DNA from: an uncultured Candidatus Saccharibacteria bacterium
Lineage (GTDB): Bacteria; Patescibacteriota; Saccharimonadia; Saccharimonadales; Saccharimonadaceae
Direction of reading: 5' to 3'
DNA length: 64,000 nucleotides
Assembly (NCBI GenBank): GCA_964549705.1
Contig: CAZJUX010000002.1
Span: 3,007-67,006 of the forward strand
The notes beneath the pieces are model-generated. The model saw nothing but the letters and a program-made list of their open reading frames with translations, ran no database searches and was not told the DNA's origin. Position 1 is the stretch's first letter. Every line of letters starts with the position of its first letter. Both the position numbers and the translations under genes were made by a program. This document shows, piece by piece, positions 17,750 through 17,852 of this stretch.

Positions 17750-17852
17750 AACTCTTTGACGCGAAGATTACGTTATAGGTGAGATGGTTTTCTGACTTTA
17801 CAGTTGCGCGACAGTGAGGGAATCTCGCCCTACTTGCCCAAAACTCGACCAA
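17750..17852 (-). ncRNA. Compact cobalamin (B12) riboswitch candidate
   Basis: Minus strand reads GGGCAAGU-AGGG CGAGAUU CCCU-CACUGUCGCGCAACUGUAA-AGUCAGAAAACC, then hairpin UCUU-CGCGUCA-AAGA whose loop can pair with the L5 CGCG. These match the P4 T-loop, GCAACUGUA and AGUCAG hallmarks of cobalamin riboswitches as I recall them; not scored with a covariance model. Confidence 0.72.

Follow-up and report, generated by a model that had tools for sequence, protein, structure and literature searches.

A probable class-II cobalamin riboswitch preceding an acidic protein and a Clp-like ATPase in a Saccharibacteria genome

A short RNA element in the genome of an uncultured Candidatus Saccharibacteria bacterium (assembly GCA_964549705.1) is, judged from its sequence, very probably a class-II cobalamin riboswitch (Cbl-II, Rfam family RF01689) in working order. 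The stretch analysed, hereafter the window, comprises 64,000 nucleotides (nt) of contig CAZJUX010000002.1 (positions 3,007 to 67,006), and the element lies on its minus strand. As an RNA architecture, it is nothing new: class-II aptamers lacking the P6 extension became known in 2010, and their structure was determined in 2012. What is unusual is its occurrence in the tiny genome (0.77 Mb) of a member of the Saccharibacteria, within the candidate phyla radiation (CPR), before two uncharacterized genes. Riboswitches indicate function reliably; through this one, two proteins of an ultra-small, host-dependent bacterium, an unannotated acidic protein and an atypical Clp-like ATPase, are linked to B12 physiology. 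In full-text literature searches, no paper turned up that connects cobalamin riboswitches with Saccharibacteria or Patescibacteria.

The whole window was scanned against Rfam 15, and RF01689 (AdoCbl-II, originally ‘AdoCbl-variant’, where AdoCbl is adenosylcobalamin) was the single regulatory match, with 37.3 bits against a gathering score of 36.5. The match is 75 nt long, the model 81 nt, and with E-values of 3.3e-5 for the 64-kb window and 9.2e-8 for the genome it stands far above chance. Two other identities were rejected. Cbl-I (RF00174) scores 19.7 bits against a gathering score of 31.5, and its P2 arm and long P6 extension are absent; RF01482 scores 31.3 bits against a gathering score of 50, with a match (17743-17865) that spans the downstream hairpin. 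Searches of the genome with RF01689, RF00174, and RF01482 found no further locus of the cobalamin clan. RF01689 was defined in 2010 (PMC2864571, Table 1), and class II has been described as lacking the P2 arm, with P6 bearing only a loop or a small hairpin (PMC7367189). A preliminary description of this locus had recognized a cobalamin riboswitch whose P6 lacks the peripheral extension, in agreement with the RF01689 match and the plain L6. It had also proposed a new, ‘ultra-minimal’ architecture, which we do not uphold: the build is that of the RF01689 consensus, the P4–P6 core is gapless in 47 of 47 aligned homologues, and some relatives have aptamers that are shorter still (60–70 nt). The ‘deleted’ peripheral extension is not peculiar to this locus because its absence defines class II.

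Read on the minus strand, the aptamer is UGGUCGAGUUUUGGGCAAGUAGGGCGAGAUUCCCUCACUGUCGCGCAACUGUAAAGUCAGAAAACCAUCUCACCU (17851-17777), and its parts are listed in Table 1. The P2 arm and the P7–P11 extension on P6 are both absent, and P1 joins P3 through a 3x1 loop. GCAACUGUAA (17807-17798) abuts AGUCAGAAAACC (17797-17786) without a gap, just as first described, and the earlier figure of ‘about 68 nt’ for the core is consistent with the 73 nt between the first and last bases of P1 (17850-17778) and the 56 nt from P3 to P3. A linker of 10 nt (17777-17768) leads to a separate hairpin, also present as reported, with strands UCUU (17767-17764) and AAGA (17756-17753) and the loop CGCGUCA (17763-17757).

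The helices of the aptamer were evaluated by aligning 47 distinct core segments and counting the Rfam-derived structure against 500 shuffles. Core-only segments, with P1 and P3 parsed from constrained folds, were used because a full-aptamer MAFFT alignment misplaced P6 and P1. Paired cells amount to 87.1%, compared to 71.2% in shuffled alignments, nine pairs have changed on both sides, and the covariation score is 0.358 versus 0.094; none of the 500 shuffles reaches the observed paired fraction, number of both-side changes, or covariation score, and the last collapses when partners are slid by 1–3 columns. Four of the five P4 pairs show both-side changes. P5 and P6 are each 100% paired, the former with one U-A to A-U change and the latter with U-A replaced by G-C in eight sequences. 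P3 is only 63% paired in the MAFFT alignment because its register shifts by one column between subgroups. The helices of the P3–P6 four-way junction, which has the standard form and is closed by P1, are supported by covariation, with a P3 register that is inconsistent across subgroups in the MAFFT alignment. Along the same lines, the P1 helix is maintained through differing sequences among six clade members, namely the window, the genomes G033 and G008 of the same genus, and the homologues L071, L091, and L115. In constrained folds of P1/P3, the window pairs GGU(C)GAG...UGG with CCA.CUCACC, G033 pairs GAGCU(U)GG with CCAGCUC, G008 pairs CUGAGG..UGG with CCACCUCAG, and L071 pairs CUCCAA..CGG with CCGUUGGAG; L091 and L115 have yet other sequences that retain the pairing.

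A three-way alignment of the intergenic regions of G033, G008, and the window's own genome (G000), whose neighboring reductase proteins are 83–90% identical, gives a similar picture. Identity is 70–95% over the aptamer core (17842-17783), UCUUCGCGUCAAAG is invariant, and the 20-column block containing the kissing hairpin scores 0.65; over the P1 strands and the remaining leader, identity drops to 0–40%. A conserved core and hairpin amid divergent flanks indicate selection on the RNA. The element could instead be a decaying relic or a chance match without a regulatory role, as its borderline Rfam score and unremarkable folding energy might suggest. Against this stand the contrast between the conserved core, with its invariant hairpin sequence, and the flanks, the covariation of P1, and the pairing of RNA and operon in six genomes, which together make a relic or chance match hardly credible.

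The hairpin downstream of the aptamer is identified as P13/L13, the kissing partner of L5, by covariation across lineages and by conservation, as the preliminary description had proposed. In a comparison of 71 aptamers, L5 ends in N1N2CG, and the downstream loop reads CG, an optional base, and the complement of N1N2. Thus, L5 GCCG is matched by CG(x)GC in L13 in 37 of 42 sequences, CGCG by CG(x)CG in six of nine, and CCCG by CG(x)GG in 16 of 17, and the sole ACCG case (L093) has CGGGU in its downstream loop. Mismatched combinations of L5 and L13 mostly occur in 0–22% of sequences, the exceptions being CGCG with GU, where the motif shares letters with CGCGU, and three L5 types of which there is one sequence apiece. 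A blind rule that ignores N1N2 and takes the first 4-bp hairpin whose loop begins with CG finds compatible loops in 40 of 54 sequences, compared to 23.6 +/- 2.1 when loops are shuffled among sequences; none of 2000 shuffles reaches 40. In the window, the CGCG of L5 faces the CGCG of L13 (17763-17760), an arrangement invariant in G033 and G008. The L5 loop CGC (17810-17808) is flanked by GU and G, and the pairing suggested earlier, GUCGCG with CGCGUC, forms at five of six positions with one U.U, the alternative being CGCG with CGCG at four of four. The longer version is possible and would open part of P5. Taken alone, the P13 hairpin is marginal (-0.1 kcal/mol), as expected of a P13 whose productive formation requires docking (PMC5028336). 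GCAACUG is retained in homologous leaders and the kissing complementarity shows covariation; the loss of these two features, which the preliminary description would have taken as a refutation, is thus not observed.

The leader continues into a hairpin between an anti-Shine-Dalgarno (anti-SD) segment, CCUCUC, and GAGAGG in the Shine-Dalgarno (SD) region AAGGAGAGGAG. Extended to eight pairs, this hairpin has a folding energy of -9.8 kcal/mol (z=-2.62, with one of 200 shuffles as good), and equivalent SD-sequestering hairpins of different sequence are found in G033, G008, L071, L091, and L115. No U-run lies 3' of the window's sequestering hairpin, and control is therefore most likely translational. 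When the window's leader is folded without constraints, the anti-SD region pairs with the 5' half of the aptamer (GUCGAG/CUCGAC and GGGC/GCCC) and the SD is open. In the same model, enforcing P1–P6 and P13, with L5 and L13 held single-stranded as if kissing, lowers the unpaired probability of the SD from 0.79 to 0.22.

On the basis of these folds, we propose with moderate confidence an OFF switch that would act through ligand-dependent release of the anti-SD. Cobalamin binding would lock the aptamer and the L5–L13 kissing complex, and the locked state would leave the anti-SD (17732-17727) available for pairing with GAGAGG (17710-17705), so that translation could not start. In the unliganded RNA, the anti-SD region would be held in an alternative pairing that leaves the SD open; the best candidate for this partner is, we infer, the 5' half of the aptamer. 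Related leaders offer variants of the scheme. In the free platform of G033, GCAAUCUUCGC, which comprises the 5' side of P13 and L13, pairs with GCGAUAGAUUGC in the loop of the sequestering hairpin and frees the SD, and enforcing P13 brings sequestration back in the model. Similarly, in a subset of GCC-type riboswitches, which belong to other Saccharimonadales and CPR lineages (e.g., L048, L060, L087, L106, and L113), P13 is followed by an SD-hiding hairpin that doubles as a terminator. There, CUUCCGAG (P13 5' side and L13) is complementary to CUCGGAAG beside the anti-SD; in a systematic anti-sequestor search, only the subgroup with this pairing gives a significant result. For the window, the same search does not pin down the switching helix: the ungapped complement of P13-5'/L13 in its platform is at chance (6/10, P=0.86). 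A gapped pairing spotted by eye (GUAAUC/GAUUAC plus GUC/GAC) is not claimed because of this result.

The chance-level anti-sequestor is one of several observations that weigh against a working OFF switch. The SD is sequestered in both modelled states in four of the six clade members (G008, L071, L091, and L115). The RF01689 gathering score is exceeded by only 0.8 bits, and folding energies are no better than those of shuffled sequences (z=0.36 for the leader and 0.20 for the aptamer). No base bulges from the 4-bp CGCG/CGCG kiss, the U.U appearing only in the six-position version, whereas unpaired or non-canonical positions in the kissing helix are essential according to PMC5028336; the kissing loops of relatives, CG-A-GC and CG-C-CG, do include a bulge. 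Finally, neither of the regulated genes is known to be connected with B12.

Some of these points could be turned toward an activating (ON) riboswitch, in which B12 would induce the acidic protein and the AAA+ ATPase, for instance, as helpers for the adjoining reductase. If the SD hairpin is closed with or without the aptamer fold, as predicted for four of six clade members, something must open it; moreover, the operon adjoins the gene of an AdoCbl-dependent ribonucleoside-triphosphate reductase (RTPR) in the window's genus, and activating corrinoid riboswitches exist (PMC10327014). We nonetheless consider activation improbable. The enforced holo fold makes the window's SD less, not more, accessible, and the more distant genomes G061–G063 have the operon with no RTPR homologue found, in a search that had no positive control. 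Cobalamin riboswitches studied so far mostly repress.

How the element relates to known cobalamin riboswitches is best seen by comparison with the env8 hydroxocobalamin (HyCbl) riboswitch, a member of Cbl-IIa (PDB 4FRN/4FRG). Both have the P3–P6 four-way junction, a 7-nt L4, a plain L6 without the P7–P11 extension, and an L5–L13 kiss as the regulatory link, and translational control is common to env8 and our reading of the window. However, the bulged J1/3 T-loop of env8 is missing from the window, where J1/3 is reduced to UUU/U. The ribosome-binding site of env8 lies in L13 (PMC5028336), whereas the window's SD is 43–55 nt beyond L13 and has its own sequestering hairpin. The two unpaired purines of the env8 kiss are absent from CGCG/CGCG, and J6/3 is AAAA in the window compared to the consensus AGcG. 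Cbl-IIb elements, such as the Enterococcus faecalis eut element (RF01482), share with the window a short, nearly paired J1/3 and the lack of a long P6 extension, but their P6 carries a short hairpin extension where the window has a plain 6-nt L6. Thus, the window combines a IIb-type J1/3 with a IIa-type L6. Cbl-I elements (RF00174; E. coli btuB and T. tengcongensis, 4GMA) belong to the same clan and share the binding core and the principle of the L5–L13 kiss, but they have the P2 arm and P7–P11 extension that the window lacks. GCC-type class-II riboswitches have the window's core, with L5/L13 GCCG/CGAGC instead of CGCG/CGCG and a J1/3 of mostly 8–12 nt, and their cargo differs, consisting of a DUF4430 protein and a membrane protein, or of a Cys-rich protein. 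The window's short J1/3 is not unique because it is frequent among GCAACUGUAAAGUCAGA carriers, e.g., L045, L052, L058, L061, L063, L071, and L072; among the sister genomes, J1/3 is one bulged U in G033 and two unpaired bases in G008.

These differences bear on which cobalamin is sensed. According to PMC6158498, J1/3 of env8 is bulged, and its last five nucleotides fold into a T-loop that docks on J6/3 and helps to shape the pocket; J1/3 is the key determinant of selectivity between AdoCbl and methylcobalamin (MeCbl), and class II covers the whole selectivity range. PMC7367189 (Fig. 1) assigns a bulged J1/3 and a P6 loop to Cbl-IIa, which binds HyCbl or MeCbl, and a short mismatched or paired J1/3 and a short P6 hairpin to Cbl-IIb, which binds AdoCbl. 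The preliminary description had inferred a streamlined variant tuned to MeCbl or hydroxocobalamin (OHCbl) and sensing the substrate pool of the adenosyltransferase CobA. In keeping with this idea, the P6 extension is lacking and L6 is plain, as in the HyCbl- or MeCbl-binding Cbl-IIa type of the PMC7367189 scheme, RF01689 scores higher than RF01482 (37.3 versus 31.3 bits), and CobA is encoded in the genome. On the other hand, the architecture is already known, the sole B12 enzyme identified uses AdoCbl, and a short, mismatched J1/3 is a Cbl-IIb (AdoCbl) trait (PMC7367189). As J1/3, the published selectivity determinant, which contacts the ligand and J6/3 in env8, is nearly absent here, the MeCbl/OHCbl preference cannot be inferred. 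We regard such a variant as doubtful, and the form of cobalamin sensed is not readable from the sequence. Members with a plain L6 and without J1/3 are a natural test of the elements that set AdoCbl versus MeCbl selectivity.

The direct junction between GUAA and AGUC was traced beyond the window by a 17-mer search in a collection of species-representative genomes. The exact 17-mer GCAACTGTAAAGTCAGA is present in 95 contigs of other species, 80 of which were listed. Inspection by eye of the upstream context (P4, L4, and CUGU-NNN) classed 51 of the 80 as class-II aptamers, the remainder being coding or chance matches. The class-II carriers among the matches listed belong to Bacteriovoracaceae, Flavobacteriia, several ‘Gammaproteobacteria’ metagenome-assembled genomes, and many CPR lineages, including Saccharimonadales, Peregrinibacteria, Levyibacteriota, and Gottesmanbacteria. 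The GUAA/AGUC site is a variable insertion point, since some Saccharimonadales relatives carry a short hairpin precisely there, and the window shows its empty state, which is the consensus.

A second search, at E<=0.01 with RF01689, covered 61 genomes, i.e., the host assembly (768,906 bases in 33 contigs, 95% complete) and 60 relatives. One hit each was found in 20 of the 61, covering 18 of 25 genera with the window's genus counted, where three of 37 genomes have a hit (G000, G008, and G033). The gathering score is exceeded in 11 of the 20; nine fall below it, several owing to an insertion in L6. With almost half of the Saccharimonadales hits below threshold, routine annotation undercounts these riboswitches. 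The earlier warning that standard models may miss the element is correct for RF00174 and RF01482, which do miss it, and for the sub-threshold relatives, but not for RF01689 at this locus.

The first of the two genes behind the riboswitch encodes the acidic protein, which has no Pfam or NCBIfam match; a homologue search with its folded part recovered only itself, and an AlphaFold model of that small part, built from a six-sequence alignment, is of low confidence (predicted local distance difference test, pLDDT, of 53). The second gene encodes the ATPase. Full-length orthologues of the latter (70–80% identity) are confined to G000, G008, and G033 among the 61 genomes, as is RTPR (three of 61); of the 37 genus members, exactly three combine the riboswitch with RTPR and the AAA+ orthologue. 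In G033, the ATPase orthologue lies on a separate contig (C51, 3465-5164) in two pieces (residues 1-437 and 437-566), reflecting a frameshift or an assembly error. Coordinates of the genes and of all parts of the leader are collected in Table 1.

Table 1. Coordinates, strand, and basis of the features in the window.
Feature	Position	Strand	Basis
Class-II cobalamin aptamer, full RF01689 match (model positions 1-81)	17777..17851	-	cmscan
P1 5' strand GGU(C)GAG, C17847 bulged; partner CUCACC 17783-17778	17844..17850	-	constrained fold and aptamer minimum-free-energy fold
J1/3, UUU opposite U17784; 3x1 internal loop, no T-loop	17841..17843	-	Rfam alignment (four-position deletion), constrained-fold parse
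P3 5' strand UGG; partner CCA 17787-17785	17838..17840	-	Rfam alignment, constrained fold, covariation count
P4, AGGG 17831-17828 with CCCU 17820-17817	within 17816..17833	-	covariation
P4 outer pair G17833-C17816, U17832 bulged		-	
L4, CGAGAUU	17827-17821	-	
P5 (UGU/GCA) and L5 CGC	17805..17813	-	P5 pairing count, L5-L13 covariation
Kissing core CGCG in L5	17810-17807	-	
P6 (CUG/CAG), plain 6-nt loop UAAAGU (17800-17795), no peripheral extension	17792..17803	-	P6 pairing count
J6/3, AAAA	17788..17791	-	Rfam alignment
P13/L13 kissing hairpin UCUU-CGCGUCA-AAGA	17753..17767	-	conservation in G033 and G008
Anti-SD CCUCUC	17727..17732	-	hairpin with GAGAGG
SD region (GAGAGG 17710-17705 faces the anti-SD)	17703..17713	-	sequence, modelled accessibility
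Gene 1, 541-residue acidic, mostly low-complexity (disordered) protein; ATG at 17698	16073..17698	-	list of open reading frames, family scans
Gene 2, 567-residue Clp/Hsp100-like ATPase with two AAA+ modules; start overlaps the gene 1 stop	14373..16076	-	family scans
AdoCbl-dependent RTPR with ATP cone; divergent, outside riboswitch control	18128..20440	+	TIGR02505 1.8e-78, below curated cut-off
CobA/BtuR ATP:corrinoid adenosyltransferase, 8 kb away	25662..26231	+	PF02572 1.2e-49

The same pairing of riboswitch, acidic protein, and ATPase is found in the window and five other CPR genomes. Three of these (G061, G062, and G063) are more distant and also have a CGCG-type riboswitch. In G061 and G062, it directly precedes a 700–790-residue acidic protein and an overlapping 579-residue ATPase that is 49–53% identical to the window's, after which come a small acidic protein and a P-loop protein with a weak HerA/DUF87-like match; in G063, the same operon pieces are split over two short contigs. 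Positional counterparts of the acidic protein thus stand behind the CGCG-type riboswitch in G008, G033, G061, G062, and G063, with sequence similarity demonstrated only in the G000/G008/G033 group and between G061 and G063. The proteins otherwise barely align, yet their C-termini (16073-16165 in the window; also L144, L145, L146, and L029) have in common a hydrophobic-x-F/I/L stretch followed by a short basic run of the RR(K/Q)R type, as in FSHDRRKKKNNRR, FTTQQRRKRQ, and QPNRRQRS. Full-length ATPase orthologues are restricted to genomes with the CGCG-type riboswitch, and GCC-type genomes are without an orthologue. A tie between the operon and RTPR was considered and dropped: no RTPR homologue was found in G061–G063, by a search without a positive control. 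The operon is thus associated with the riboswitch subtype rather than with the reductase.

CobA was found in G000 and in each of the 24 other genera, but the remaining 36 genomes of the window's genus gave no detectable match. It seems that B12 use was lost in most of this genus or was regained by this small clade. To judge from the annotated genes, the host appears to salvage B12, by means of CobA, for its AdoCbl-dependent RTPR. A more far-reaching interpretation is that the subgroup defined by an L5 of CGCG, a near-absent J1/3, a plain L6, and a separate SD hairpin marks an undescribed B12-regulated CPR operon, possibly serving cobalamin acquisition from the host or B12-sparing, with cobalamin recognition outside the solved structures. 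This operon would consist of the acidic disordered protein with its basic C-terminal tail and the Clp/Hsp100-like ATPase, joined in three of six genomes by the small acidic protein and the HerA-like ATPase. Recognition unlike any solved structure is conceivable because the aptamer lacks both peripheral elements known to shape the binding pocket. We consider this interpretation speculative and rather unlikely as a whole.

Riboswitches of the same class precede other genes in related lineages. In one set of relatives (L024, L026, L028, L030–L032, L034, L036, L037, L039, and L041), the riboswitch controls a fast-evolving protein of 370–500 residues without a Pfam match; its C-terminus is Cys-rich and zinc-ribbon-like, and a NadD-like nucleotidyltransferase follows it. 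In L035 (genome G040), it stands before a DUF4430 lipoprotein-like protein and a membrane protein of ~200 residues; L050, L052, L061, L070, L075, and L107 have an anchored protein, a secreted protein of ~440 residues, and a member of the G040 membrane-protein family. The cargo of L035 and of these six loci likely consists of B12-uptake genes. The first gene of L072 (Levyibacteriota) resembles, by eye from its N-terminus, a PduO-type cob(I)alamin adenosyltransferase, followed by further proteins and a large membrane P-loop protein that is also found in L060 and L093. In L058, L067, and L088 (Peregrinibacteria/Peribacteria), a CGCG-type riboswitch lies upstream of proteins that, by eye, have an ATP-cone-like sequence at their start and resemble ribonucleotide reductases, which would match the classical arrangement in which B12 represses an alternative ribonucleotide reductase.

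The region upstream of the aptamer holds additional boxes. The palindrome GTGACATATATCAC (17896-17911), of a TGTGA-N6-TCACA-like type, lies ~45–60 nt upstream; G033 and G008 conserve its arms, and a regulator may bind here, within the promoter of the riboswitch. Two palindromes resembling NrdR boxes, AACGCTATATATAGCGTT (17938-17955) and GCGCTACATGTAGTGT (18058-18075), are likewise both conserved in G033 and G008; their core, CTAYATRTAG, occurs in the window at these two sites only, compared to 0.25 expected, and a gene for NrdR is present in the genome (134 bits). In most other Saccharimonadales genera (L005–L022), a box of the NrdR-like type, such as TACTACATGTAGCGT or ACTACATATAGYG, is found 40–60 nt upstream of the riboswitch, and the riboswitch-controlled gene may also sit there in a ribonucleotide-reductase regulon.

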